A stretch of 64,000 nucleotides of DNA from Deltaproteobacteria bacterium RIFCSPLOWO2_12_FULL_60_19 (lineage in GTDB: Bacteria; Desulfobacterota; Binatia; UBA9968). The notes beneath the pieces were generated by a model that was given only the letters and a program-made list of their open reading frames with translations, searched no databases and had not been told where the DNA came from. This document shows positions 2,307 to 60,413 of this stretch, in pieces (position 1 is the stretch's first letter; the number at the start of each line of letters is the position of its first letter). Made by a program: the position numbers and the translations under genes. Location: NCBI GenBank assembly GCA_001798595.1, contig MGSS01000114.1, positions 2,034-66,033 of the forward strand. Direction: 5' to 3'.

Positions 2307-2384
2307 AAAATGCAAAATGAAAAATACAAAATGAAAATTTTAAAATTTGCGCTCTGAGTTCACGAGAGTGAGAGGATTACGGAC

Positions 2385-5322: not shown

Positions 5323-5418
5323 GCGGATAGTGAGCAGTGAGTAGTGATGAGTGAGCAGCAGAGAGGTCGGGAAGTTGGGCACTGCTCACTACTCACTTTC
5401 TCACTGCTTACTCTTTTC

Positions 5419-5690: not shown

Positions 5691-5782
5691 AGCCCTACGG
5701 GAGGGCGAACCTCAGATTTCAGATTTCAAATAACCTGGGATCTGTAATCTGAGATCTGAGATTCCGAGCGTAGCGAGGATAC

Positions 5783-5858
<76 letters not shown>

Positions 5859-6086
5859 AATTTTCCCAAGTCTTTCAAGGAGTTGTTCATTGATCTAAGA
5901 GCCACTTGTTCTACCACTGTCCGCAAATTGTCCGTGTTTTGTCCGTGTTCTCTCATCCAACCGCCTTTTTCAGCGGGTAGATGACGCCGGCCTTGGCCTG
6001 CCTCTGAAGATGCTTCGTTTCGCCTCAAGTTGCGCAACCGCCCCCGTTGGTATAGCCTTTACTCGTCTACGGAAGGAGAGGGCCGC

Positions 6087-6296
6087 ATGAAACAATTCGT
6101 TGTAACTCTGACACCTGGCGAAGACGGCTACATCGTTGCCGAATGCCCCTCCTTGCCCGGTTGCGTCTCTCAAGGCAAGACCAAAGACGAAGCCTTGCAA
6201 AACATCAAGGAAGCCATCGAAGGCATCCTTGAGGTCCGCCGCGGGATGAACAATCCCATTGCTCCGCCGGAAGTCCGTTTCATCGAAATCGCCTGA
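6087..6296 (+). CDS. hicB: HicB-family antitoxin (UPF0150)
   Basis: 69 aa. ATG 6087 lies downstream of a strong SD (GGAAGGAGAG). Motifs: TLTPGEDGYIVAECPSLPGCVSQGKTKDEALQNIKEAIEG. The reading frame overlaps hicA by 1 nt. Confidence 0.7.
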   Translation: MKQFVVTLTPGEDGYIVAECPSLPGCVSQGKTKDEALQNIKEAIEGILEVRRGMNNPIAPPEVRFIEIA

Positions 6297-6514
6297 TGCC
6301 AGCCCCGCCCGTGATCTCGGGCCGGGAAGCGGCCAAAGCCTTCCAAAAGATCGGCTTTCTTTTTCATCACCAAACCGGCAGCCATATGATCTACTACCGG
6401 TCCGATGGCCGCCATCTTTCCATCCCCGATCATAAAGAGCTTGATCGAGGAACCTTGCGCGGCCTCATCAAAGGCGCCGGGATCACGGTCGAAGAATTCG
6501 TCAATCTGCTGTAG
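6296..6514 (+). CDS. hicA: HicA-family mRNA-interferase toxin (YcfA-like)
   Basis: 72 aa with the HicA pattern: G.E..KA..K.GF...HQTGSH.IY....GR.L.IP.H.KELDRGTLRG.IK.AGI. Confidence 0.7.
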   Translation: MPAPPVISGREAAKAFQKIGFLFHHQTGSHMIYYRSDGRHLSIPDHKELDRGTLRGLIKGAGITVEEFVNLL

Positions 6515-6823
6515 GTTGTCACAGGCGGCAGCCATCTCCAGTGGTTGGCGCTCCGTCAGTGCGCCGTCATCGATGATTTTATTGCCTCCAGACCTGGCCA
6601 AAGACACGGACAATTCACGGACAGGCTGGAGAAAAGGCTTGCACCGTAGGAAGTTAGGATGGCCCGTCTGATTGTCGATCACACCGGCCGCAGCGTGCTT
6701 GTCCGCCTTTTGTCCGTGTGCTGGCGCACCCATCCGCCTACGATGACCGAACAACCGAAAGGGAGCATCTTGAAATGCTTGGGGGTTTTGGTAACATGTC
6801 GCCTGTGGTTCGCCTGGGGAAGC

Positions 6824-6869
6824 ACTCTTAATCAGCGGGTCCAGAGTTCGAGTCTCCGGCGGCCCACCA
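6824..6869 (+). repeat. Partial duplicate of the tRNA-Lys(CTT) 3' half (att-type direct repeat)
   Basis: ACTCTTAATCAGCGGGTCCaGAGTTCGAGTCTCCGGCGGCCCACCA matches 5813..5858 with one mismatch. It lacks the 5' half, so it is not a functional tRNA. Confidence 0.8.
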
Positions 6870-6935
6870 AATTTTTCCCGCGAACAGCGGGGAAAATTTA
6901 GAGCATTCGAGCAATGCCTCCACGATTCCTTTCCC

Positions 6936-24327: not shown

Positions 24328-24429
24328 GGGACAATGCAAAAGGAAAAATGGAAAATAGAATCAAAAGAACGCGAGTTTGTCGGGACGTCATTTTGCCTTT
24401 TGCATTTTTCATTTTGCATTGACTTTATC

Positions 24430-42992: not shown

Positions 42993-43066
42993 CTTCGCTT
43001 AGGAATACGACACCGAGCAGGGAGGCGGTTTGACCGCCTCCTTTTTTTCTCTGATAGCTGAAGATC

Positions 43067-46740: not shown

Positions 46741-47027
46741 AAGAGCCTCAACGGATAATTTTGGCTCCGTTGGTGACCGAGAAGAGCACCTTGCTGTTGG
46801 AGAAGGCCAATCAGGTTCTGTTCCGCGTGCGGCCCGACGCCAACAAAATCGAAGTCAAGCGCGCCATCGAGACGCTGTTCAAGGTGAAGGTCGAGAAGGT
46901 GAGGATGAACCGCTATCTCGGCAAGCTGCGGCGCGTCGGGAGAAATGTGGGCCGCCTCCCCCAATGGAAAAAGGCTTACGTGACGTTAAAAGAAGGGGAC
47001 AAGATCGAACTATTTGGCGGCGCCTAA
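46737..47027 (+). CDS. rplW: 50S ribosomal protein L23
   Basis: 96 aa; position and conserved [15 protein letters not shown]. Confidence 0.93.
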
Positions 47028-47090
47028 AGAATTTTAGATTTTGGATTGCCGATTTTCGATTCAATCTAAAATCTAAAATCAAAAATTGGG
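47028..47090. repeat. AT-rich palindromic intergenic repeat, family B copy 1 (between rplW and rplB)
   Basis: gaATTTTAGATTTTGGATTGccgattttcgattCAATCTAAAATCTAAAATcaaaaattgg. Arms of about 18 nt are almost perfectly inverted around a 13-nt loop. The element is about 20% GC in a 65% GC genome and recurs at 50717 and 57555. Confidence 0.7.
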
Positions 47091-47095
47091 GAACG

Positions 47096-47920
47096 ATGGC
47101 GATCAAGACTTACAATCCAACCTCGGCGGGGATGAGGTTTAGGACCGGTCTCGACTTTGAGGAGATTACGCGGACCGGGGCGGAAAAGCGCCTGCTTCTT
47201 CCCGTAAAGCGCAGCGGCGGGCGCAACAACACCGGACGCATCACGAGCCACCATCGCGGGGGCGGCCACAAGCGCCTCTATCGCATAATCGACTTCAAGC
47301 GCGACAAGATGGGGACTCCGGCGCGGGTTGAAGCTATCGAATACGATCCCAACCGTTCCGCGCGCATCGCGCTGCTCTGCTACGCGGACGGAGAGCGCCG
47401 CTATATCGTGGCGCCCGATCAACTCAAGGTGGGAGATTCGGTACTCTCCGGCGGCGAGGGGGTCGATATCAAGCCGGGAAATTCGCTGCCGCTCAAGTTC
47501 ATTCCGGTGGGCACCGTCATCCACAACGTCGAGATCAAGCTCGGCAAGGGGGCGCAGCTGGCGCGCAGCGCGGGCGCCGGGGCGCAGTTGATGGCCAAAG
47601 AGGGACGTTATGCCCTGCTGAAGCTCCCATCCGGCGAGCTGCGCAACGTGCTGGCCGAATGCCGCGCCAGCGTGGGGCAGGTCGGGAACCTGGACCAGGA
47701 AAATGTCTCGTGGGGCAAGGCCGGGAGGATGCGTTGGCTGGGCAAGAAGCCGTGGACTCGCGGAATCGCCAAAAATCCGGTGGATCATCCTCACGGGGGC
47801 GGCGAAGGGCGTTCCAAGGGAAATCACCCGCAGACGCCCTGGGGGAAGCCGACGAAGGGTTACAAAACCAGGAAGCGCCGGCACTCGGATAAGTATATCG
47901 TTCAGCGTAGAGAGGGCTGA
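47096..47920 (+). CDS. rplB: 50S ribosomal protein L2
   Basis: 274 aa from ATG 47096 ([12 protein letters not shown]); the track ORF 46718.. is a frame run-on through the repeat. [11 protein letters not shown] motif. Confidence 0.95.
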
Positions 47921-47925
47921 TCCCG

Positions 47926-48306
47926 ATGGCACGCTCGATTAAAAAAGGTCCGTTTGTCGACGATCACCTCAGGCGGAAGATTGAGGCGATGAACCAGAGC
48001 AAGGATAAGCGGGTCCTCAAGACCTGGTCGCGGCGCTCGACGATTACGCCGGACATGGTGAGCTATACGATCGCGGTCCATAACGGGAGAAAATTCATTC
48101 CCGTTTTTGTGACCGAAAGTATGGTGGGCCATAAGCTTGGCGAGTTCGCGCCGACGCGGACGTTCCACGTGCATTCGGGAGACCGCAAGGCCGAGGCCAA
48201 AACAGGAGTTGTGGGCGCGCCGCGGGCGGCTCCCGGGGCCCCGGCGGCAGCGCCGGCGCCGGCCGCGCCGGCCGCTCCGGCGGCTGCGGCCAAGCCGAAG
48301 GCGTAA
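47926..48306 (+). CDS. rpsS: 30S ribosomal protein S19 with ~35-aa Ala/Pro-rich C-terminal extension
   Basis: The first 91 aa are canonical S19 ([13 protein letters not shown]). This is followed by [39 protein letters not shown]. Confidence 0.92.
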
Positions 48307-48341
48307 TGGATCGAGAGCGGGGAGTTCGGAGATAACGAAAC

Positions 48342-48677
48342 ATGGAAACGCGCGCTCAAACTCGCTTTGTCAGCCTGGCCCCGCGCAAGGTGCAGCTGGT
48401 CGTGGATCAAATCCGGGGGAAGGGTGTTGAGGAGGCTCTGAACATTCTGAAGTTTGTGCCAAAGCGGTCGGCGGCGATTGTGACGAAGACTTTGAGGTCG
48501 GCTGTGGCCAACGCGGAAAACACCCAAAGCGTGGATGTCGATCGGCTTTATGTCAAGCGCATCGCGGTCGACGAGGGCGGCATGCGCAAGGGCTTCATGC
48601 CTCGGGCGATGGGGCGGGGGGCGCGCATTCGTAAACGGCTCAGTCATATCACCGTGGTGGTCGACGAGAGGGGATAG
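48342..48677 (+). CDS. rplV: 50S ribosomal protein L22
   Basis: 111 aa; position and conserved L22 core. Confidence 0.94.
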   Translation: METRAQTRFVSLAPRKVQLVVDQIRGKGVEEALNILKFVPKRSAAIVTKTLRSAVANAENTQSVDVDRLYVKRIAVDEGGMRKGFMPRAMGRGARIRKRLSHITVVVDERG

Positions 48678-48683
48678 GCGCTC

Positions 48684-49346
48684 ATGGGGCAGAAGACTCA
48701 TCCGAAACTTTTCCGCATCGGAGTCATAGACTCCTGGGATTCCAAGTGGTACGCGCAGCACGATTACGCGCGGCTGCTCCATGAGGATCTGAAGATCAAG
48801 AAATTTCTCAAAACCAGGCTCTATCACGCCGGCATCTCGAAGATCGAAATCGAAAGGGCGGCCAACAAGGCGAAGATCAACATCTACACCGCGCGCCCCG
48901 GGATCGTCATCGGCAAAAAGGGCGCGGAGATAGAAAAACTCAAGCAGGAGATCTCGCGTCTCTCGGATCGCGAAGCCTATCTCAACATCATCGAGGTGCG
49001 CCGTCCCGACCTGGACGGGCAGCTCGTCGGTGAAAACGTCGCGCTCCAGCTGGAGCGTCGCGTGGCCTTTCGCCGGGCGATGAAGGAGAGCGTATCGCGC
49101 GCGCTTAGGATGGGAGCCGAAGGGGTAAAGATTCAATGCGCGGGGCGACTGGGCGGGACCGAGATTGCGCGCACCGAGTGGTACCGGGAAGGCCGCGTGC
49201 CGCTACACACTCTGCGGGCGGATATCAGTTACGGATTTGCCGAAGCCAAGACGACCTACGGAGTGATCGGTGTCAAAGTGTGGATCATGAGGGGCGAGGT
49301 TTTAACGGAGCAAGAGGAGCAGCAAAAGGCGGCGATGGGCGCCTAG
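48684..49346 (+). CDS. rpsC: 30S ribosomal protein S3
   Basis: 220 aa; MGQKTHP..FR.G; KH domain. Confidence 0.96.
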
Positions 49347-49392
49347 CGATTCGGGGTTTCAAGGTTCAAGAGTTCAAAGGTTCAAGGGTTGA
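49347..49392. repeat. Short tandem repeat (GGTTCAAG-like units x4-5) in the rpsC-rplP spacer
   Basis: cgattcgggGTTTCAAGGTTCAAGAGTTCAAAGGTTCAAGGGTTGAAAGcag. Seen directly in the sequence. Confidence 0.6.
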
Positions 49393-49398
49393 AAGCAG

Positions 49399-49824
49399 AT
49401 GTTAGAGCCAAAGAAAGTCAAATACCGCAAGCAACAGAAGGGCCGCCGGGCAGGATTTGCTCAGCGGGGATCCACGTTGGCCTTCGGGGATTACGGGCTT
49501 AAGGCGCTCGATCGGGGGTGGCTCGGCGCGCGGGAGATTGAGGCGGCGCGGATCGCGCTCACCCGCTATCTCAAGCGCGGCGGAAAGGTCTGGATTCGGA
49601 TATTTCCGGATAAGCCGATTACCAAGAAGCCGGCTGAGACCCGGATGGGAAAAGGCAAAGGCGCGACTGCGGGCTGGGTGGCGGTCGTCAAGCCCGGCAG
49701 GGTTCTTTACGAGATGGAAGGCGTGGAGCGCGAGCTGGCGCGGGAGGCGTTCCGTTTAGCAGCGCACAAGCTCTCGATTGCCACCATGTTCGTCGAGCGA
49801 AAGGGGCTGAGCCATGCCGGTTAA
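49399..49824 (+). CDS. rplP: 50S ribosomal protein L16
   Basis: 141 aa; [16 protein letters not shown]. Confidence 0.96.
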
Positions 49825-50017
49825 GGAGCTGCGCGAGCTGGGGAAGGACGAGCTGGCGCAGAAGCGCGCCGAACTCAAAGAGGAGATTTTTCATCTCAGG
49901 CTCAGGCGGGCCACAGGTAGGTTGGAGGCCCCGATGAAACTGAGGCAAAACAGGCGGGAGTTGGCCCGGGTCGAGACCATCATGCGGGAGCGGGAGCTTA
50001 AGGGGGCGGAAGGCTAA
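49814..50017 (+). CDS. rpmC: 50S ribosomal protein L29
   Basis: 67 aa; position and coiled-coil-like sequence. Confidence 0.9.
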
Positions 50018-50018
50018 G

Positions 50019-50324
50019 ATGAATCCACGAGGCATGCGCAAAGAGCGCCAAGGCGTGGTGCTGAGCAACCGGATGCAGAAGACCGTCGTGATCGCGGTGG
50101 AACGGATCGTGCTGCACCCGAAATATAAAAAATATCTCAAGCGGCGCACGAAGCTGAAGGCCCACGACGAAAACAATGCTTGCCAGGTGGGGGATCGGGT
50201 ATCGATCGTCGAGTCGCGTCCGCTAAGCCGCGAGAAACGCTGGCGGGTCAGCAAGATTCTCGAGCGGGCGGTGGCGACGGAAGGCGTCGAGCCGGGCTCG
50301 CCGGGCGCGCCTGTTTCGGCTTAA
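50019..50324 (+). CDS. rpsQ: 30S ribosomal protein S17
   Basis: 101 aa; G.V.S..M.KT.VV.VER...HPKY.K. motif. Confidence 0.93.
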
Positions 50325-50347
50325 ACATTGGGGGTTGAGGTCGGCGT

Positions 50348-50716
50348 ATGATTCAGATGCGGACGGTTTTGGATGTCGCGGACAACTCGGGGGCGCGCAA
50401 GGTCCAGTGCATCAAAGTTCTCGGCGGCAGCAAGCGGAGATATGCCTCCGTGGGCGACGTGATCGTGGTCTCGGTCAAGGAGGCGATCCCCAACGCGAAG
50501 GTCAAGAAGGGGGAAGTGGCCAAGGCGGTGGTGGTGCGGACGGCCAAGGAGCTGGGGCGGCCCGACGGGAGTTATATCCGTTTCGACGTGAACTCGGCGG
50601 TGTTGATCGATAACCAGCGGGAGCCGATCGGGACGCGGATTTTCGGACCGGTGGCGCGCGAGCTGCGCGGGAAGAAATTCATGAAGATCATCTCGCTGGC
50701 GCCTGAGGTGCTTTGA
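50348..50716 (+). CDS. rplN: 50S ribosomal protein L14
   Basis: 122 aa; [16 protein letters not shown]. Confidence 0.97.
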
Positions 50717-50781
50717 AATTTTAGATTTTGGATTGCCGATTTTAGATTGAATCGAAAATCAAAAATCTAAAATCGAAAATG
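50717..50781. repeat. AT-rich palindromic intergenic repeat, family B copy 2 (between rplN and rplX)
   Basis: aATTTTAGATTTTGGATTGCCGATTTTagattgaatcgaaaatcAAAAATCTAAAATcgaaaatggg. The first 27 nt are identical to copy 1. Confidence 0.7.
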
Positions 50782-50786
50782 GGAAG

Positions 50787-51098
50787 ATGCATATTCGGAA
50801 AAACGACAGTGTGATGGTGGTCACCGGCAGGGAGCGGGGCAAGACGGGCAAGGTCCTGCGGGTGATGCCCGATCGAGACGCGGCCATCATCGAGCGCGTC
50901 AACCTGGTGAAGCGCCATGCCAAGGCGCGCGGCCCGCAGCAGCCCGGCGGCATCGTGGAGAAAGAGGCGCCGATGCGCCTCTCCAACATCATGCTGATGT
51001 GCGACAAGTGCAACGCGCCGGTCAGGGTCGGGAGAAAAGTCATGGCCGATGGCGACAAGGCGCGTGTCTGCCGGCGCTGCGGGGATCCTATAGATTAG
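50787..51098 (+). CDS. rplX: 50S ribosomal protein L24
   Basis: 103 aa; KOW motif; position. Confidence 0.93.
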   Translation: MHIRKNDSVMVVTGRERGKTGKVLRVMPDRDAAIIERVNLVKRHAKARGPQQPGGIVEKEAPMRLSNIMLMCDKCNAPVRVGRKVMADGDKARVCRRCGDPID

Positions 51099-51134
51099 TC
51101 CCGAGTTTTCAGTCTCGGGCTTCGAGTGTTGACG

Positions 51135-51698
51135 ATGGCGGTTAAAGCAGAAACCAAGATAACGCGGCTCAGGAAGAAATATCAGGAGGAGATCGTCCCT
51201 CTGATGATGAAGGAGTTCGGCTACGGCAATCCGCTTCAGGTGCCGCGTCTGGAAAAGATTACCTTGAACATGTGCCTGAACGAGGCGCGGGAAAACGTCA
51301 AGGTTCTTGACGCCGCCGTCGCCGAGATCGCCTCGATCACGGGCCAAAGGCCGGTGATCACCCGCGCGAAAAAAGCCATTGCGAATTTCAAGTTGCGCGA
51401 AGGCGTGCCCATCGGCTGCATGGTGACGCTCAGGCGCGAGCGCATGTACGAATTTCTGGACCGGTTGATCCACGCGGCGTTGCCGCGAGTGAGGGATTTC
51501 AAGGGAATTCCCGACCGGGCCTTCGACGGCCGCGGCAACTATTCTCTGGGGCTGCGCGAGCAGATTATCTTTCCCGAGATCCAGGTCGACAAGGTGGACA
51601 AGCCCCACGGCCTCACGGTGTCGATCGTTACCACGGCGAAATCCGACCAGGAAGGGAAGGCGCTGCTCAAGCTCTTGGGCATGCCGTTTGCGGGTTAG
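51135..51698 (+). CDS. rplE: 50S ribosomal protein L5
   Basis: The track ORF begins at GTG 51126; ATG 51135 is preferred. Ends ...[13 protein letters not shown]. Confidence 0.93.
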
Positions 51699-51709
51699 GG
51701 AGGGAGCCA

Positions 51710-51895
51710 TTGGCTAAGACGTGTCTCAGGGTGAAGGCCGAACGGCCCGGCAAGTTTAAGGTAAGGCAGTACAACCGCTGCCCGCTCTGCGGGCGGGCGC
51801 GCGCTTTTTATCGTCGTTTTCGGATGTGTCGAATCTGCCTGCGCGACAATGCGCGCAAGGGCCAGATTCCCGGACTGATCAAAGCAAGCTGGTAG
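51710..51895 (+). CDS. rpsN: 30S ribosomal protein S14, zinc-binding type Z
   Basis: 61 aa with the C..C....C..C zinc cluster (CPLCGR...CRIC). Confidence 0.93.
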
Positions 51896-51913
51896 CTGGT
51901 TGGGAGAGAGAAG

Positions 51914-52318
51914 ATGGCAATGACCGATCCGATCGCCGATATGCTGACCCGCATCCGCAATGCGGCCCGCGCCGGGCATGAAAGCCTGGAGATGCCCGCT
52001 TCGCGCGTTAAAGAGGCGATCCTGAAGGTGTTGGTTGCGGAAGGCTACCTGCAAGATTTCAAAAGGGTGAAAGCCAAGGACCGAGGGGGCGAGGCGCTGC
52101 GCGTGCAACTGAGATTCGACAAAGCCCGCAAACCGATCATGGCCGGGCTGCGCCGCATCAGCCGCCCGGGCCGGCGGGTCTATGTGGGCATCGAGCAGAT
52201 ACCGCCGCTGCGCGCGGGGCTGGGAGTCCACATTCTCTCGACCTGCAAAGGCATTTTGGCGGATCGCGATGCCAAAAAGAAAAAGGTCGGCGGAGAAATC
52301 ATCTGCTCGGTCTGGTAG
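51914..52318 (+). CDS. rpsH: 30S ribosomal protein S8
   Basis: 134 aa; MTDPIADMLTRIRNA. Confidence 0.96.
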   Translation: MAMTDPIADMLTRIRNAARAGHESLEMPASRVKEAILKVLVAEGYLQDFKRVKAKDRGGEALRVQLRFDKARKPIMAGLRRISRPGRRVYVGIEQIPPLRAGLGVHILSTCKGILADRDAKKKKVGGEIICSVW

Positions 52319-52335
52319 CGGAATAGGAGAGAAAC

Positions 52336-52887
52336 GTGTCGCGCATCGGACGGTTGCCTATATCGATTCCTGCGGGAGTCAAAGTCGCCCTGGAAGACCA
52401 TGGAGTCCGCGCGGAGGGACCAAAGGGAAAGCTTCGCACGGAACTCCCGCGTGGAATCCAGGTCGCGGTGGCAGCGAACATCATCAACGTCACACGCGAG
52501 GCCGAGGACAGGAAGAGCAAGGCGCTGCACGGGCTGACGCGCAAACTGGTCGCCAATATGGTCGAGGGTGTCAGCCGCGGCTTTACGCGTGTGCTGGATA
52601 TCAACGGCGTCGGTTACCGAGCGGAAGTCAAAGGGACCGAGCTGCATATGACGTTGGGCTATTCGCATCCTATAGTGTTTCCCTTGCCGGCGGGAGTGAC
52701 GGCCTCGGTGGAGCGTCAGATCATTATTACGCTCACCAGCGCCGACCGGCGGGTGCTGGGAGAGACGGCAGCCGCGATCAGGGGCTTTAGGCCGCCGGAA
52801 CCCTACAAAGGGAAAGGGGTCAAATACCGCGAGGAAGTTATTAAACGGAAAGCTGGAAAAGCGGTCGGCGCTGCGAGCTCCGGCTAA
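52336..52887 (+). CDS. rplF: 50S ribosomal protein L6
   Basis: 183 aa; MSRIGRLPI.IP.GV. Confidence 0.95.
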   Translation: MSRIGRLPISIPAGVKVALEDHGVRAEGPKGKLRTELPRGIQVAVAANIINVTREAEDRKSKALHGLTRKLVANMVEGVSRGFTRVLDINGVGYRAEVKGTELHMTLGYSHPIVFPLPAGVTASVERQIIITLTSADRRVLGETAAAIRGFRPPEPYKGKGVKYREEVIKRKAGKAVGAASSG

Positions 52888-52907
52888 ATAGTCGCGAAGG
52901 TCGAGAG

Positions 52908-53276
52908 ATGTTGGACAATCAGAGACAAAGCGCGCGCAAAGCGCGGCAGCAGCGCGTGCGCAAGAAAGTCCGCGGGTCGAACACGCTGCCCAGGGTCTGC
53001 GTCTATCGGAGCCTCAAGCATATCTACGCCCAGATCATATCGGACGATAAGGGCGTGACCCTGGCTTCGGTTTCGACTCTTTCCCCGAATATCAAGAGCG
53101 GCAAGCTCAAGAGCGCCAAGTCGGTGGACGCGGCGAAGCAGGTGGGGCAGGCGCTCGCTCAGGCATGCAGGGAGAAAAATATTTCTCGCGTCGTTTTCGA
53201 CCGCAATGGATTTATGTTTCATGGGCGCGTCAAGGCTTTAGCGGATGCGTTGCGCGAAGGCGGCATTAAATTTTAG
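52908..53276 (+). CDS. rplR: 50S ribosomal protein L18
   Basis: 122 aa; RL.VYRS.KHIYAQIIDD. Confidence 0.94.
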   Translation: MLDNQRQSARKARQQRVRKKVRGSNTLPRVCVYRSLKHIYAQIISDDKGVTLASVSTLSPNIKSGKLKSAKSVDAAKQVGQALAQACREKNISRVVFDRNGFMFHGRVKALADALREGGIKF

Positions 53277-53348
53277 GACTGAGTAACGAGCACCGAGGGA
53301 TGGGTACTTGACTTAGCGCTCACTCCTCATCGCTCAGCGCTGGAGAAT

Positions 53349-53846
53349 ATGGAAAGAATCGATCCACAGGGACTGGAGCTGAAAGAAAAGGTCGTGCACA
53401 TCAGCCGCGTGGCTAAGGTGGTCAAGGGCGGCCGTCGCTTTAGCTTCAACGCCCTGGTCGTAGTGGGCGATGGCCGGTCGCTGGTGGGCTATGGCATGGG
53501 CAAAGCGAAAGAGGTTCCCGAAGCGATCCGCAAGGGACTGGAACAGGCCAAGAAGAGTTTGATCAGAGTTCCAATCATTGCCGGAACGATCCCTTTTGAA
53601 GTGACCGGGCGCTACGGCGCCGGACATGTGATGTTGAAGCCCGCCTCCGACGGCACCGGCGTGATTGCGGGCGGAGGCGTGCGCGCGGTTGTAGAGGCGG
53701 CCGGAATCCAGAACGTTCTCACGAAATGCATCGGCTCCACCAATCCGCACAACAGCGTGAAGGCGGCGTTCGAAGCGTTGAGAGATCTCAAGTTTCCCGA
53801 GGAAGTCGCCGCGCGAAGAGGAAAGCCGCTGGAGGAGATCCGATAA
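53349..53846 (+). CDS. rpsE: 30S ribosomal protein S5
   Basis: 165 aa; [32 protein letters not shown]. Confidence 0.96.
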
Positions 53847-53851
53847 GAGCT

Positions 53852-54304
53852 ATGGACCTGAGCAATTTACATCCCGCGCCGGGATCGACCAAAAAGCGCA
53901 AGCGAGTGGGACGCGGGCCCGGCTCGGGCCACGGCAAGACGTCGTGCCGCGGCCACAAGGGCCAGGGGGCGCGCTCCGGGGGCGGCACCCGGCCCGGCTT
54001 TGAAGGCGGGCAGATGCCGCTGCGACGCCGCGTTCCCAAGCGGGGATTTCACAACCCGTCGCAGAACAAGCCGGCGGTGGTGAATCTCGGGCAGCTGGAG
54101 GTTTTCGACTCGGGAAGCGAAGTGACGCCGGATATCTTACTGGCGCGCGGTTTCATTGCCGGGAAGGGCCGCGCCGTAAAAATTTTGGCGGAAGGCTCGT
54201 TGAGCAAGTCCCTGACGGTCAAAGCCCATGCTTTTTCCTCGAAGGCCAAAGAGAGACTGGAATCCTTAGGGGGCAAGGCGGAGTTGATCACAGCCCATGA
54301 TTGA
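53852..54304 (+). CDS. rplO: 50S ribosomal protein L15 (no L30 gene between rpsE and rplO)
   Basis: Track frame 53726..54304; ATG 53852 ([30 protein letters not shown]) lies 6 nt after the rpsE stop. Confidence 0.93.
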
Positions 54305-55607
54305 AGGCTTTCAAAATGCGAGCAAGATTCCCGAGCTCAGGCGCAGGGTATTTTTCACCCTGTCCATGCTCGTGGTCTATCGCGTGGGAGTCCACATTCC
54401 GACGCCCGGCATCGATCGGGTAGCGCTGGCGTCGTTTTTCGACCGCGTCAAAGACACGATCTTCGGCCTGTTTAACCTGTTCTCCGGCGGCGCGTTGGAG
54501 CAGTTCTCGGTTTTTTCTCTGGGCATCATGCCCTACATCAGCGCGTCTATCATTTTGCAGCTGCTCACGGTGGTCTTTCCGTACCTTGAGCGGTTGTCCA
54601 AGGAGGGCGAAGCGGGGCGCAGGAAGATCACGCAGTACACGCGCTACGGCACCATCGTTCTGTCGATCGTTCAAGGGCTGATGATCGCCATGGGAATGGA
54701 AGGAACCCGCGGCGGGGGCGGGGAGGCGATCGTGCTCGATCCCGGCTGGCGTTTTCGCATCATGACCGTCATCACGCTCACTTCCGGCACGGCGTTCATC
54801 ATGTGGCTGGGAGAGCAGATCACGGAGCGCGGCATCGGCAACGGCATTTCGCTGATTATTTTCGCCGGGATTGTGGCGCGTCTCCCGTCGGCCATCACCT
54901 CAACGTTTCAGTTTGTCCAGGAAGGGGAGCTGAGAATTTTCGTCGTTCTGTTCGTGCTGCTGATCGTGATCGCCTCAGTCGGCGCGGTCATCTTCATGGA
55001 GCGGGGGCAGAGGCGGATCCCGGTCCAGTACGCGAAAAGAGTCGTCGGGCGCAAGATGTACGGCGGGCAAAGCTCGCACCTGCCGCTGAAGATCAACACT
55101 TCGGGCGTGATCCCTCCGATATTCGCCTCGTCGATTTTGATCTTTCCCGCTACGCTGGCGCAATTCGTGCAACATCCCTGGGCGCAATCCCTCGCGAGTT
55201 ATCTCGCGCCGGGCCGGTGGCTGCACGACGCGCTCTACGTCGGATTCATCATTTTCTTCTGTTACTTTTACACGGCCGTGGTGTTCAACCCCGCCGACGT
55301 GTCGGAGAACATGAAAAAGTTCGGCGGCTATATTCCCGGGATCAGGCCCGGACAAAAAACGGCCGAGTTCATCGACCGGGTGCTCTCCAGGGTGACTCTC
55401 GGCGGCGCGCTTTACCTCTCGGCGGTGGCGCTGTTGCCGACGCTGCTCATCGGCCAGTTTAACGTTCCGTTTTTTTTCGGGGGCACGGCGCTGCTGATTG
55501 TCGTGGGCGTGGCTTTGGACACCGTGGCGCAAGTTGAGACTCACATGATCAGCCGAAACTACGAGGGTTTTATGCGCGGCGGCCGTCTCAGAGGGCGAAG
55601 AGGTTAG
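54297..55607 (+). CDS. secY: Preprotein translocase subunit SecY
   Basis: 436 aa, 10 TM helices, conserved SecY motifs ([14 protein letters not shown]). Confidence 0.96.
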
Positions 55608-55609
55608 GG

Positions 55610-56281
55610 TTGGGCAACGAGCGGGTTTTTCGGGTGGTGTTTTTAGGGCCTCCGGGCGCGGGGAAGGGGACTCAAGCGAGGCTCTTGGAAGAAGGGATCG
55701 GCGCTTGCCGCCTGTCGACCGGAGATATCCTGCGCCAGGCGGTTGAAGAGCAGACGCCGCTCGGGAAAGAGGCGGCGGATTATCTCCACCAGGGACAGCT
55801 GGTGCCCGATGAGATGATGCTGAAGCTGATCGGCGAGCGGCTCAGCCAGGCCGATTGCCGGAGCAGTTTCATCCTGGACGGGTTTCCCAGGACGGTTGCC
55901 CAGGCGGACGGACTGGAGCGGATACTCAAAGAGCTCGGCTCGGAGTTGGATTTCGTGCTTTGCCTCCGGGTCCCGAATGAGACGATCATTCAACGGCTGG
56001 CAGGCCGGCGGACCTGCAAGGGATGCGGGGCCGTTCACCATGTCGCGTTTAGTCCGCCGGCTCGGGCCGGGCGGTGCGATGGGTGCGGCGGAGAGCTTTA
56101 CCAGCGAGAGGACGATCGCGAGGAGAAGATCGCGGCGCGGCTCAGCGTTTACGAGACGCAGACCACGCCGCTGGCCGAATACTATCGCAAGCGCGGCCTG
56201 CTGAGAGAGATCGACGGCTCCGGGAACATCGAACAGGTGCGCAGTCGGGCTTTCCAGGCGCTGGGGGCGAACGCGGCATGA
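55610..56281 (+). CDS. adk: Adenylate kinase (with zinc-binding lid CxxC...CxxC)
   Basis: P-loop GPPGAGKGTQA; lid CKGCGAVHH...CDGCGGEL. The start is ambiguous: TTG 55610 per the track, with GTG 55634/55637 as alternatives. Confidence 0.9.
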   Translation: MGNERVFRVVFLGPPGAGKGTQARLLEEGIGACRLSTGDILRQAVEEQTPLGKEAADYLHQGQLVPDEMMLKLIGERLSQADCRSSFILDGFPRTVAQADGLERILKELGSELDFVLCLRVPNETIIQRLAGRRTCKGCGAVHHVAFSPPARAGRCDGCGGELYQREDDREEKIAARLSVYETQTTPLAEYYRKRGLLREIDGSGNIEQVRSRAFQALGANAA

Positions 56282-57036
56282 TCACTCTCAAATCGGCGCG
56301 CGAAATCGAAGTGCTGAGAAGAGCGAATGTGATCGTGGCGGAGATTCTGGAGGAGCTTAAAAAAAAAGTGGCCCCGGGGGTCACGACGCTGGAGTTGGAC
56401 TCCCTGGCGGAGGAGCTGACCTATAAGAAGAAGGCGCTGCCCGCGTTCAAGGGTTACCAGATGGCCGGGCGGGTTTATCCCGGATCGCTCTGCGTCTCGG
56501 TCAACGACGAGATCGTCCACGGCATTCCGGGCGAGCGAGCGCTGAAAGATGGGGATGTGGTCGGGCTCGATTTCGGCGTGATCTATGAAGGTTTCTACGG
56601 CGATTCGGCGTTCACCGTCGGTGTCGGCCAAGTGAGCGAAGAGGCGGCGCGTCTCATGCGGGTGACCGAGCAGTCGCTCTATCGCGGGATCGAGCAGCTG
56701 GTCGAGGGAAAACGGCTCGGAGATCTTTCGTCGGTGGTTCAAAAGACGGTCGAAGAGGCCGGATTTTCCGTGGTCCGCGCGTTCGTCGGGCACGGCATCG
56801 GCAAGCGGCTGCACGAAGACCCGCCGGTGCCCAACTACGGCGAGCCGGATCGAGGCCTTCGCATAAGAGAAGGGATGGTCCTGGCCATCGAGCCGATGGT
56901 CAACGCCGGCGGCTGGGACGTGAAGATGAAAGAGGACGGCTGGACCGCCGTCACCGCGGACGGGAGCTTGTCGGCTCACTTCGAGCATTCCGTGGCGATT
57001 ACCAAAAACGGTCCGTACGTTTTGAGCAAGCTTTAA
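56278..57036 (+). CDS. map: Type I methionine aminopeptidase
   Basis: Track frame 56074..57036. ATG 56278 (MITLKSAREIEVLRRAN) overlaps the adk stop. Metal ligands lie in VGHGIG and HFEH. Confidence 0.93.
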   Translation: MITLKSAREIEVLRRANVIVAEILEELKKKVAPGVTTLELDSLAEELTYKKKALPAFKGYQMAGRVYPGSLCVSVNDEIVHGIPGERALKDGDVVGLDFGVIYEGFYGDSAFTVGVGQVSEEAARLMRVTEQSLYRGIEQLVEGKRLGDLSSVVQKTVEEAGFSVVRAFVGHGIGKRLHEDPPVPNYGEPDRGLRIREGMVLAIEPMVNAGGWDVKMKEDGWTAVTADGSLSAHFEHSVAITKNGPYVLSKL

Positions 57037-57200
57037 CGGAAGGACTGCCGATCCTTCGACTGGCCTGTCCTGAGCAAACCAGTCGCATCCTTCGACAAGC
57101 TCAGGACGAACGGCTGGTTTGTCGAAGGGCTCAGGACGGTGGGCAGAGTCGAACCGTTTTCGGTTTGAGTAACGGCCGGCGAACAAACGAGTGACGGGAC

Positions 57201-57419
57201 ATGCCTAAGGGAGATTCGATCGAGGTGACCGGAATGGTGTTGGAGACATTGCCCAACGCCATGTTTCGCGTGGCGCTCGACAACGGCCACAAGGTCCTGG
57301 CGCACATCTCAGGCAAGATGCGCATGCACTACATCAAGATCCTCCCGGGGGACAAAGTGCGGATCGAGCTGTCGCCTTACGACCTGGGCCGCGGGAGGAT
57401 CACGTACCGTGAAAAATAG
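57201..57419 (+). CDS. infA: Translation initiation factor IF-1
   Basis: 72 aa with an S1-like OB fold; [23 protein letters not shown]. Confidence 0.96.
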
Positions 57420-57440
57420 GGCCGGGGAGAGAGACCAGAA

Positions 57441-57554
57441 ATGAAGGTTCGAGCATCGGTTAAAAAGATCTGCAACAAATGCAAAGTGATCCGGCGCAAG
57501 GGAGTCGTGCGGGTGGTTTGCGAGAACATCAGGCACAAACAGAGGCAAGGCTGA
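57441..57554 (+). CDS. rpmJ: 50S ribosomal protein L36
   Basis: Hand-called 37-aa ORF: [37 protein letters not shown]. Confidence 0.9.
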
Positions 57555-57652
57555 ACAATTTTAGATTTTCGATTTCCGCCAGAGGCGGATCCGCCAAAGC
57601 TTTGTGGCGGAGCCGATCTGATTTTAGATTGGAATCAAAAATCGAAAATTGG
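57555..57652. repeat. AT-rich palindromic intergenic repeat, family B copy 3, with internal GC-rich hairpin insert (between rpmJ and rpsM)
   Basis: caATTTTAGATTTTcGATTTccgccagaggcggatccgccaaagctttgtggcggagccgatctGATTTTAGATTGgaatcaaaaatcgaaaattgg. The terminal A/T arms match copies 1 and 2. The centre carries two GC stems (ccgcc...ggcgg). Confidence 0.65.
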
Positions 57653-58065: not shown

Positions 58066-58133
58066 CGAGGCGCATGATGCAAGATGCGGGATGCGAGATC
58101 CAAGATGCCTGCGGGCTTTGAAGGAGTAAGCTG

Positions 58134-60289: not shown

Positions 60290-60314
60290 GCAAACGCAAA
60301 AATGCGTTTGCTTT
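60290..60314 (+). terminator. Hairpin (9-bp stem GCAAACGCA/TGCGTTTGC, AAAA loop) followed by TTT; weak intrinsic terminator or attenuator after rpoA
   Basis: Seen directly 2 nt after the rpoA stop. Followed by the tandem GGAGCAATGGAGCAATGGAGCAG and its inverted partners (GCTCCATTG x2) at 60315..60400. Confidence 0.45.
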
Positions 60315-60413
60315 GGAGCAATGGAGCAATGGAGCAGATAGAGCGATGAGTTCGACCAAAAAAGCTCCATTGCGGCCTAATGCTCTAATGCTCCATTGAC
60401 GATCGATAAATCT

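Follow-up and report, generated by a model that had tools for sequence, protein, structure and literature searches.

Introduction

Few gene arrays are as conserved and as tightly coupled as the ribosomal-protein operons, yet in the MAG lineages examined here almost all of their long junctions are filled. The window, which is the whole 64,000-nucleotide stretch of DNA analyzed here, holds a ribosomal-protein cluster in which three gaps are occupied by AT-rich palindromes. A sequence-only reading took them for one repeat and offered three explanations, namely an RNase III/E processing site, a transcriptional attenuator and a MITE-like mobile repeat. What are these palindromes, how do they come to lie between essential genes, and how are they tolerated there?

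The Three Palindromes of the Ribosomal-Protein Cluster

The coding strand of the cluster is the + strand, and the three palindromes, c1 to c3, are intergenic within it. The flanking genes were identified with NCBIfam, and the inner hairpins of c3 were defined by folding.

47030..47087, + strand: copy c1, rplW–rplB gap (rplW stop 47025-47027, rplB ATG 47096)
50717..50780, + strand: copy c2, rplN–rplX gap (rplN stop 50714-50716, rplX ATG 50787)
57557..57650, + strand: copy c3, rpmJ–rpsM gap (rpmJ stop 57552-57554, rpsM ATG 57682)
57575-57589, + strand: nested GC-rich hairpin 1 of c3, TCCGCCAGAGGCGGA
57590-57611, + strand: nested GC-rich hairpin 2 of c3, TCCGCCAAAGCTTTGTGGCGGA
57613..57632, + strand: small AT-rich inner hairpin of c3, CCGATCTG ATTT TAGATTGG

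The palindromes are true copies of one repeat, as first proposed. The 19-mer AATTTTAGATTTTGGATTG, allowing up to 3 mismatches, has 7 matches in the window, every one of them at the c1, c2 or c3 site, and 0 are expected by chance (100 shuffles). The first 27 nt that c1 and c2 were said to share are indeed identical (47030-47056 and 50717-50743), and the GC-rich double hairpin described in c3 is present, accompanied by the third, small one. What has to be replaced is the view of each arm as one unique sequence. The arms are an inverted pair of tandem heptamer arrays, (GATTTTN)n-GATTGCC…(NAAAATC)n, with a single irregular unit per element, GATTGCC or GATTTCC, at the inner edge of one arm. The left array of c1 reads AATTTTA GATTTTG GATTGCC GATTTTC GATT and the right array AATC TAAAATC TAAAATC AAAAATT; period 7 is detected by TRF at 47031-47061, 47063-47086, 50718-50748 and 50750-50780. 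The center between the arms varies, being 13 nt at its shortest and, where GC hairpins are nested in it, reaching about 100 nt. Copies in the window are 58-94 nt long, and those found elsewhere 44-171 nt. The GC content is 22% in c1, 23% in c2 and 41% in c3 (25% in its arms alone), within a window of about 60%.

The strong hairpin expected on either strand is borne out by RNA folding, with z-scores of -3.7 to -5.1 across c1 to c3 on both strands. The fold energies of c1, c2 and c3 are -21, -21 and -43.7 kcal/mol on the + strand, and -17.1, -19.1 and -39.1 kcal/mol on the - strand. The c1 stem has 18 bp including one G-U pair (47031-47048 with 47062-47079) and a loop of 13 nt, while the c2 helix has 11+4+6 bp and also pairs the rplN stop codon at its base (50712-50716 with 50773-50777). 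Pairing of the outer AU arms in c3 (57557-57574 with 57633-57650) produces the closing stem of a three-way junction. The seventh-base positions of the heptamers are Watson-Crick paired in only 47% of cases, and the GATTTTN helix is thus not optimized.

Two of the copies had been placed at classical operon boundaries. This is correct for rpmJ–rpsM, the spc/alpha boundary, and incorrect for rplN–rplX. In E. coli, the S10 and spc operons meet at rpsQ–rplN, the classical boundary, and rplN–rplX falls one gene further in, within spc; the rpsQ–rplN spacer of the window is 23 nt long (50325-50347) and holds no element.

Conservation and Turnover in Close Relatives

The sequences of c1 to c3 are unchanged in independent assemblies of the same species: c1 is identical in contigs L001-L003 and L006, c2 in 7 contigs, and c3 in L001, L002 and L004. 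Copy c2 is diverged in L005 and chimeric in L007. The latter contig shares 96% identity with the window and carries one more GATTTTN palindrome, its fourth, at rpsC–rplP (S3–L16), where the window carries a (GGTTCAA)n-type spacer. At L14–L24 (rplN–rplX), the spacer is empty (6-31 nt) in most relatives and occupied by a GATTTTN palindrome in L269 (72% L24 identity). In L245 (98% L24 identity, flanks about 97% identical), another heptamer palindrome, of the GGACTGAG type, replaces c2. Near-twins of the c3 hairpin TCCGCCAGAGGCGGA lie inside GATTTTN copies at S3–L16 of L247 and L250, direct-only heptamer arrays occupy corresponding junctions in relatives and in the window, and the number of arm units differs among c1, c2, L152, L007, L250 and L253. 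At S3–L16, the arm is identical at 18/18 nt in 10/10 pairs, and the third-codon identity of the adjacent rplP is 0.37-0.69 in 9 of these 10. The presence of GATTTTN at a given junction turns over quickly while its arm sequence stays constant.

Spread across Bacteria and Genomic Location

A pattern with 19 specified bases was searched in contigs representing one genome per species. It occurs at no fewer than 115 loci, with about 0.1 expected in 60%-GC DNA, and an inverse arm lies at most 170 nt away in 61 of the 115 matches listed. Near-identical copies are found in at least 10 bacterial phyla; the sources among the matches listed include Acidobacteriota, Cyanobacteria, Chloroflexota, Planctomycetota, Verrucomicrobiota, Binatia, Syntrophobacteraceae, Omnitrophota and others. 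The arm string of c1 and c2 recurs in L007, in L152 and in many phyla. Named MAGs hold at least 3-4 matches each, further arrays occur near the seed matches at about 3.9 per 100 kb (GC-rich genomes), and recurrence of the same irregular arm string at many unrelated loci of one genome is partly seen in the Syntrophobacteraceae MAGs. Copies of the family are scattered within genomes, and their arms are near-identical across many phyla. No published description of the GATTTTN repeat was found in the literature, nor a paper spelling out its unit.

The element is almost solely intergenic and strongly over-represented, relative to chance, in units of the translation apparatus, that is, ribosomal-protein junctions and tRNA spacers. 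As estimated from the 115 matches listed, an unordered sample, 18 lie at a ribosomal-protein junction (8) or within 12 nt of a tRNA gene (10), the latter including the Ile–Ala spacer of an rRNA operon and a 17-tRNA array. The junctions occupied in other genomes are L3–L4, L2–S19, L23–L2, S3–L16, S17–L14 and L10–L12. Copies stand in either orientation and also in convergent and divergent gaps.

In the window, every copy takes up the space between the stop codon of the gene before it and the Shine-Dalgarno (SD) site of the gene after it. The hairpin begins a median of 3 nt past the stop codon (d5) and ends a median of 11.5 nt ahead of the next start codon (d3). The remainder left unpaired after folding has a median of 16.5 nt (IQR 10-25), as against 17 nt (IQR 10-25) for empty spacers, and the folded element leaves a single-stranded spacer as long as an empty one.

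A Wider Class of Heptamer Spacers

GATTTTN is one unit among several. The best period is 7 in 105 of 232 unique long ribosomal-protein spacers (45%), and the heptamer differs from junction to junction. Nearly all long ribosomal-protein junctions in the MAG lineages examined (Acidobacteriota, Chloroflexia, Omnitrophota and Syntrophobacteraceae, derived from soil, groundwater and sediment) hold a heptamer-built palindrome of roughly 50-150 nt. The window itself contains the following:

49347..49398, + strand: rpsC–rplP spacer, direct GGTTCAA-like 7-8-mers
53277..53348, + strand: rplR–rpsE spacer, palindrome of the GGACTGAG type, same class with another unit
58076..58108, + strand: rpsM–rpsK spacer, direct GATGCGA heptamer array, same class without an inverse arm
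60313..60395, + strand: rpoA–rplQ spacer, inverted arrays of the 8-mer TGGAGCAA, same class with period 8
5323..5418, + strand: tRNA-Pro–tRNA-Arg spacer, inverted AGTGAGC heptamer arrays, -43 kcal/mol
5711..5765, + strand: tRNA-His–tRNA-Lys spacer, inverted TCAGATT heptamer arrays, whole spacer -35 kcal/mol
24331..24424, + strand: tRNA-Val–tRNA-Asp spacer, AT-rich inverted CAAAATG-type arrays, A-rich arm first, -28 kcal/mol
2307..2338, + strand: gap between an HD-domain gene and an aldehyde dehydrogenase gene, direct A-rich AAAATGC heptamer array, no hairpin

Proposed Origin and Tolerance of the Repeat

With moderate confidence, we read c1 to c3 as a small, non-coding and non-autonomous dispersed palindromic repeat of the REP/MITE-like kind, built of heptamers and tolerated since it is folded away. 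Such a repeat would spread from a family consensus by copy-and-paste or gene conversion, and would grow and shrink by 7-nt slippage. Essential, translationally coupled operons may accommodate it because it is folded away in the transcript, which keeps the stop codon beside the following SD and start codon; the terminating ribosome would melt the 5' arm. Effects on expression, such as RNase III/E cleavage, protection from 3'-exonucleases or tighter coupling, would be secondary.

Of the three options first offered, the MITE-like repeat is the best supported. The element has terminal inverted repeats and a size within about 50-500 bp, and its dispersed copies, several per MAG, show insertion polymorphism between close relatives (S3–L16 in L007, L14–L24). 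The nesting of other small hairpins in its center also favors this option. No transposase appeared among the top 25 Pfam families of the 150 flanking proteins scanned, no RAYT was seen among the genes neighboring the copies, and no autonomous or longer element with the same ends was found among those proteins or in the one widely spaced arm pair examined (L178). This pair encloses a response-regulator-like ORF and a second ORF which, by eye, we take to resemble DUF559. The copy flanks carry no consistent direct repeat, and the ends are often AATT…AATT, indistinguishable from the arm itself. With neither a target-site duplication nor an autonomous partner found, dispersal and presence/absence variation stand, while membership among MITEs does not follow. 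The suggestion that GATTTTN is mobile comes from its distribution only, and a selected function could explain equally well both the strict arm conservation and the excess in the operons of highest expression.

Selection for an RNA function is the most serious alternative, one that we regard as possible without favoring it. Here, the AU-rich hairpin in polycistronic mRNA or pre-tRNA would be a signal for processing, stability or coupling. RNase III could cut its stem, RNase E could cut the GA/UUUU units once melted, or a protein with a heptamer footprint (a cold-shock protein or S1, for example) could bind it; in each case the hairpin would set the relative output of neighboring cistrons or separate tRNAs. 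An RNase III substrate is about two turns of dsRNA, and RNase E prefers RN/WUU, which GA/UUUU fits. From its anatomy (an 18-bp AU helix in c1 and GA/UUUU units), the element is a plausible candidate RNase III/E processing site. The over-representation in ribosomal-protein and tRNA units across phyla, arm conservation far above neutral expectation, the tight stop-to-SD placement, the c2 stop codon paired at the helix base and the 18-bp helix of c1 speak for a selected RNA element, as do the TAACTGA heptamers likewise enriched upstream of translation genes (PMC4679880). However, with composition controlled, there is no strand-specific RNA signal (fold z of -4.1 sense and -4.2 antisense), both orientations and convergent and divergent gaps are occupied, the corresponding junction is empty in most relatives, and no Rfam family matches c1 to c3. 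Unrelated heptamer units stand at other junctions, so no single binding sequence is general.

A broader form of this idea, to which we assign a rather low probability, takes inverted heptamer arrays, with GATTTTN as their pan-bacterial consensus type, as an undescribed intercistronic class specific to highly expressed translation transcripts. A conserved host factor would read the arms and so hold them constant from phylum to phylum, the candidates being a single-strand protein with a 7-nt footprint (cold-shock, S1-domain) or an RNase. As a switchable spacer, the hairpin would govern processing or ribosome hand-over between cistrons and between tRNAs.

A role at the DNA level appears improbable. 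The palindrome would then absorb supercoiling or extrude as a cruciform, bind gyrase or a nucleoid protein as REP/BIME do, or serve as an internal promoter in heavily transcribed operons. Both strands of these symmetric palindromes score alike for structure; the palindromes form 22% GC islands within 60% GC DNA, are enriched in the most transcribed loci, and contain TAAAAT hexamers that resemble a -10 box as read from the sequence. Nevertheless, the promoter scan gave only one marginal antisense site, with no excess of sites over shuffles, and GC-richer heptamer palindromes occupy equivalent positions. A center of at least 13 nt and a mismatch every 7 bp would disfavor cruciform extrusion, and the 7-bp spacing would place successive units on different faces of the duplex.

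Birth in place, by 7-nt replication slippage and fold-back duplication with copy similarity as convergence on a favored unit, is more doubtful still. It would account for the direct-only arrays at the same junctions in relatives and window, for a unit type that varies by junction and for the poor pairing at the seventh base, and among the long simple repeats of prokaryotes heptanucleotides are the most frequent (Mrazek 2007, as reported in PMC4679880 and PMC4692102). It is opposed by the 27 bases shared by c1 and c2, including the irregular GATTGCC and the order of the variable bases, and by the identical string in L007, L152 and many phyla.

An intrinsic terminator, attenuator (the second of the original options) or ribosomal-protein autoregulatory leader, suggested by stable hairpins within ribosomal-protein operons, is rejected as highly improbable: no copy has a GC-rich stem followed by a U-run, an A-rich arm comes after the stem on either strand, the terminator scan found no terminator-like site at any copy, no Rfam leader covariance model matches at the gathering score or even at E<=5, the orthologous junction lacks the element in most relatives, and the same element adjoins tRNA genes and unrelated genes.

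The palindrome is common, almost without change, to distant phyla with no known vector; either an unrecognized route of mobilization or an unrecognized conserved reader of 7-nt arrays must exist. The rule of a folded-out spacer gives a simple quantitative account of how essential operons tolerate insertions, and a design rule for placing structured RNA between cistrons. Such repeats may also seed spurious ORFs, break assemblies and confound intergenic motif searches.

Comparison with Known Repeats

Bacterial MITEs of the Correia/ERIC type are co-transcribed and cut as RNA hairpins; their terminal repeats are unique rather than tandem, they come with a target-site duplication and a related IS, and they are confined to a genus or family. 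GATTTTN resembles them in size, inverted ends, insertion between operon genes, a long RNA hairpin and presence/absence polymorphism, but its arms are tandem heptamers and it is spread over phyla.

REP, BIME and REPIN sequences are likewise short extragenic palindromes in hundreds of copies, co-transcribed in operons, forming mosaics with small motifs, and constant in sequence at varying positions (PMC3116915, PMC3733652). REPs are 20-40 bp long, GC-rich, marked by a GTAG or CGTC tag and tied to a RAYT (PMC3116915, PMC3733652), none of which is seen in GATTTTN or among the genes neighboring its copies. Membership in REP/REPIN was rejected on arms of about 22% GC, built of heptamers and free of the GTAG/CGTC tag.

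The heptamer repeats GGGAATC of Xanthomonas and GGGGA(T/C)T of Nostoc (Rehm 2015, PMC4692102) are intergenic arrays, sometimes in inverted pairs, with junction-wise length variation in close species and GATT/AATC within their units. Unlike GATTTTN, they are G-rich, studied as quadruplex formers, lineage-restricted and not reported there at ribosomal-protein junctions (PMC4692102).

Cyanobacterial STRR and heptanucleotide long simple-sequence repeats (LSSR) (Mazel 1990 and Mrazek 2007, as summarized in PMC4692102 and PMC4679880) are, in these summaries, tandem 7-nt units, mostly intergenic, with slippage as the proposed origin and copy numbers that vary between relatives, abundant in Cyanobacteria and scattered in other phyla. 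GATTTTN shares the head-to-tail 7-nt units beyond chance length, the intergenic position and the variable unit number. It differs from the repeats so summarized in that two arrays form an inverted pair and hence a hairpin, the unit and the irregular GATTGCC are almost unchanged across many phyla, and the arm is conserved where synonymous sites are saturated.

The TAACTGA direct repeats of Beggiatoaceae, Cyanobacteria and Bacteroidetes (MacGregor 2015, PMC4679880), for which S1, Csp or CsrA have been proposed as binders, are direct, with one inverted case reported, whereas GATTTTN is a palindrome; they run to about 1 nt from the start codon, often taking the place of the SD, which GATTTTN leaves outside (PMC4679880). 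Like GATTTTN, TAACTGA is a heptamer common to distant phyla without a known vector, lying just upstream of start codons and in excess at translation genes and ribosomal-protein operons (PMC4679880).

The AT-Rich Palindromes of the Window

The tuf–rpoBC–str–S10–spc–alpha gene array lies on the + strand of the window, whose GC content is about 60%. Three of its ribosomal-protein junctions, written here as pairs of flanking genes (assigned by NCBIfam), hold copies of one AT-rich element built of GATTTTN heptamers and the inverse NAAAATC heptamers:

c1: 47030-47087, L23–L2
c2: 50717-50780, L14–L24
c3: 57557-57650, L36–S13

With up to three mismatches, AATTTTAGATTTTGGATTG has seven arm matches in the 64 kb, where shuffles predict 0, and all are confined to c1, c2 and c3. 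This bears out the sequence-only reading of three related copies. The arms consist of successive heptamers, which in c1 read AATTTTA GATTTTG GATTGCC GATTTTC GATT on the left and AATC TAAAATC TAAAATC AAAAATT on the right. The first 27 bases of c1 and c2, previously described as identical, match exactly. Both copies have a GC content of 22-23%; for the c3 arms it is 25%. The fold of c1 is an 18-bp stem (47031-47048 with 47062-47079) with a 13-nt loop, and that of c2 a helix of 11+4+6 bp, with the rplN stop codon paired at its base. In c3, two GC hairpins (the extra double hairpin already noticed) and one small AT hairpin meet in a three-way junction closed by an AU stem. Both strands of all three copies fold well (z-scores of -3.7 to -5.1), and therefore the earlier observation of a strong hairpin on either strand stands. 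The assignment of L14–L24 to the S10/spc operon boundary was wrong; the boundary is S17–L14, here a bare 23 nt.

Nine independent metagenome contigs encode an identical L14 protein, and every contig found for the window's own organism falls within the window region. Since most of the nine carry c1, c2 and c3 base for base, the copies are not assembly artefacts. Two close database loci (named, as all loci below, by three-digit L numbers) differ from the window. L005 is 98.9% identical overall, but about 110 nt with c2 at their centre are about 25% diverged, between identical flanks. L007, with 96% identity, has a chimera of the window and L005 versions of c2, and an additional copy at S3–L16 with its first 24 bases matching and a GC-rich centre, where the window's own 52-nt spacer consists of GGTTCAA-like units in direct repeat.

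Other Features of the Window

A copy of the 3'-terminal 55 nt of tRNA-Lys(ctt) (5813-5867), 96% identical, lies about 1 kb downstream at 6824-6878. The repeats bracket an ORF on the - strand (6170-6754) that has no Pfam match, and close to each end of the segment are short repeats of the TTGTCCG type. The tRNA-Lys repeats resemble att sites that a small element could have left on integrating at the tRNA. Between rpsG and fusA (42993-43066), a GC hairpin, GGGAGGCGG…CCGCCTCC, precedes seven consecutive T, a putative intrinsic-terminator or attenuator-like site within the str operon. The S19 protein (47926-48306) has 126 aa, with the Pfam domain spanning residues 3-83 only; its tail is coded by GC-rich 9-nt repeats (48217-48291), and extended S19 proteins occur in relatives too. 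In the rpsE–rplO region at 53846-53860, the gene tables place no rpmD (L30) between S5 and L15 in this lineage.

Spread and Genomic Placement of the Element

A pattern search with ATTTTAGATTTTNGATTNCCG, using one genome per species, gave at least 115 loci, against about 0.1 chance matches estimated in 60%-GC DNA. The matches lie in Acidobacteriota (Blastocatellia, Pyrinomonadaceae), Cyanobacteria (Nostoc, Calothrix, Tolypothrix, Microcoleus, Oscillatoria), Chloroflexota, Planctomycetota, Verrucomicrobiota, Binatia, Syntrophobacteraceae and other 'delta' MAGs, Omnitrophota, Elusimicrobia, Gemmatimonas, Kapaibacteriota and Chitinophagaceae. A few in AT-rich genomes, as in Bacillus coding sequence, look like chance. 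The inverse arm is found within 170 nt in 61 of the 115 matches listed and, judged by eye, many continue into CCG-ATTTTNGATT, which the search pattern does not demand. Some MAGs hold at least 3-4 matches each, and in GC-rich genomes the surroundings of a seed match contain further arrays at a density of about 3.9 per 100 kb. Of the named genomes among the matches listed, a Syntrophobacteraceae MAG (L152) is nearest to the window: its coding DNA is 74-79% identical, yet its S3–L16 element is 93-94% identical to c1 and c2.

Among the matches listed, nearly all copies are intergenic. They occupy co-directional, convergent and divergent gaps roughly in the proportions expected of any intergenic element, and their neighbours represent 184 Pfam families. 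Ribosomal-protein junctions in other phyla account for 8 of the 115 matches listed (L3–L4, L23–L2, L2–S19 twice, S3–L16, S17–L14 and L10–L12 twice), and a tRNA gene lies within 12 nt in 10 of the 115; examples are a His–Arg spacer, an rRNA operon's Ile–Ala spacer and an array of 17 tRNAs. Sites of these two classes cover far less than 1% of a genome, and on this basis we estimate from the matches listed an enrichment of at least 10-fold.

Four loci (L137, L139, L156, L240) in Syntrophobacteraceae, 'delta' and Verrucomicrobia-labelled MAGs share a 123-147-nt version with a common centre. The AAAATG at the end of this version contains what looks like the start codon of the ORF downstream, which is conserved (MGG(A/V)S…); the Verrucomicrobia label of L156 may be a binning error. 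Five loci in Verrucomicrobiota and Acidobacteriota MAGs (L142, L171, L180, L196, L208) have, 4-11 nt before the mature tRNA 5' end, a lone A-rich array that lacks a partner arm, and its TAAAAT units are located where a -10 box would be expected.

Turnover of the Site and Constancy of the Arm

The sequence-only reading proposed a comparison of orthologous operons, for which an L24 protein scan of JGI metagenomes supplied 80 loci of 98% to 41% identity. Most relatives at 62-87% L24 identity have an empty L14–L24 junction (6-31 nt). At 98% L24 identity and about 97% in the flanks, L245 has it filled by another heptamer palindrome, of the GGACTGAG type; L249 and L251 carry two nested palindromes there, L246, L250 and L266 direct GTTTCGA-like heptamers, and L269, at 72% L24 identity, a GATTTTN palindrome. 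The other junctions repeat this mosaic, and so the element's presence is not a conserved trait of any one junction. Its arm, by contrast, is conserved in sequence. At S3–L16 in five lineages with homologous flanks, an 18-nt left arm is identical at 18/18 positions in all 10 pairs, while third-codon identity in the adjoining rplP is only 37-69% in 9 of the 10 and the element centres differ completely.

A Wider Class of Heptamer Palindromes and Nested Mini-Repeats

Almost all long S10/spc junctions carry a pair of inverted heptamer arrays in the Acidobacteriota, Chloroflexia, Omnitrophota and Syntrophobacteraceae loci, with a unit that varies by junction (GAATTTT, CGTATTG, CAGTGGT, GAGTGAC, TGGAGTA, CACACAG). 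The best period is 7 in 105 of the 232 unique ribosomal-protein spacers of at least 45 nt in the loci collected. The window itself contains the following:

5323-5418: tRNA-Pro–Arg spacer palindrome, AGTGAGC units, -43 kcal/mol
5691-5782: tRNA-His–Lys spacer palindrome, TCAGATT units, -35 kcal/mol
24328-24429: tRNA-Val–Asp spacer palindrome, CAAAATG units, -28 kcal/mol
L18–S5: palindrome of the GGACTGAG type
RpoA–L17: palindrome of 8-mer units
S3–L16, S13–S11 and 2307-2338: direct (non-inverted) arrays

The map–infA gap (57037-57200) holds a 164-nt GC-rich nested palindrome of -67 kcal/mol. Its segment GGGCTCAGGACGGTGGGCAGAGTCGAACCGTTTT reappears at L007:535-580, where it forms the middle of the additional AT-rich copy, and similar TTCGAC…GCTCAGGAC cores occur in element centres from other phyla. 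The map–infA type is a second small repeat family, nesting inside the GATTTTN element. A third nested mini-repeat is the small GC hairpin of c3, TCCGCCAGAGGCGGA (57575-57589), with near-twins, TCCGCCTGAGGCGGA, within the S3–L16 copies of L247 and L250.

Interpretation and Alternative Explanations

The data fit a dispersed, non-autonomous, heptamer-built palindromic repeat with a conserved arm and a free centre, which colonises gaps between co-transcribed units. In 80 period-7 hairpin spacers, the helix starts a median of 3 nt past the stop codon and ends a median of 11.5 nt ahead of the start codon. The unpaired remainder (median 16.5 nt, IQR 10-25) is the same as the length of 453 empty spacers (median 17 nt, IQR 10-25). 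The folded insert would thus restore the native distance from stop codon to Shine-Dalgarno site, and this geometric rule may be why it is tolerated. A ribosome terminating 3 nt ahead of the helix would have to open it. Folding out in the same way within a tRNA or rRNA spacer, the insert would leave the RNAs on either side untouched.

The earlier suggestion of a MITE-like mobile repeat agrees with a dispersed, non-autonomous palindrome, but no vehicle was found. No transposase family or other candidate mobilising gene was seen among the neighbours of the copies (the 25 Pfam families with the most matches in 150 flanking proteins), and the arm ends, being repeats themselves, would mask any target-site duplication. 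A widely spaced arm pair in L178 was rejected as an autonomous element, as it encloses ordinary genes. Phages were rejected as vectors: in viral contigs the loose one-arm pattern gave chance single matches only, and the strict two-arm pattern matched 2 of 2.9 million contigs. Plasmids were rejected as well, with matches only in lineages already carrying the element (cyanobacteria, mostly heterocystous, and Ca. Chlorohelix).

A selected role of the element in RNA processing or coupling is possible, and we consider it rather doubtful. The sense strand folds better in raw comparison (111:48 spacers, p=3e-8), yet shuffled sense sequences show an equal margin. After the mononucleotide-shuffle control, the sense excess is -0.12 kcal/mol (p=0.56), with z of -4.1 (sense) and -4.2 (antisense), and the stronger sense fold was dropped as a sign of RNA-level selection. 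The palindromes show strand symmetry, and there is no sign of selection on a single RNA strand. Watson-Crick pairing joins 47% of the seventh bases of the units, compared with 30% when partners are random, and 84% of the core bases; the arms are better described as tandem copies of a conserved hexamer than as a polished helix. A role in the DNA duplex, for which such symmetry might speak, strikes us as improbable. Purely local birth by slippage is unlikely because the copies share an irregular arm, with GATTGCC or GATTTCC at its inner edge. The reading as an attenuator, also raised from the sequence, or as a leader is contradicted by the lack of any terminator-like site at the elements (scan of 45-61 kb) and of any Rfam family match (searches at gathering score over the whole window and at E<=5 over 46.9-57.8 kb together gave tRNAs and one chance match only). 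A promoter scan of 45-61 kb gave one marginal antisense site at the elements, with totals equal to shuffles.

Relation to Known Heptamer Repeats

Heptanucleotide repeats are the commonest long simple repeats of prokaryotes, and the first to be recorded were the STRR of Calothrix, as cited in PMC4692102 and PMC4679880. Direct TAACTGA repeats are common to Beggiatoaceae, Cyanobacteria and Bacteroidetes and are enriched ahead of translation genes (PMC4679880), and GGGAATC and GGGGATT repeats at times form inverted pairs (PMC4692102). A sequence-string search of the accessible literature returned no paper with the present strings; an earlier description is possible. Compared with the known heptamer repeats, what the present family adds is the hairpin architecture of inverted arrays, the conservation of the unit across phyla, and the rule of placement between stop codon and Shine-Dalgarno site.
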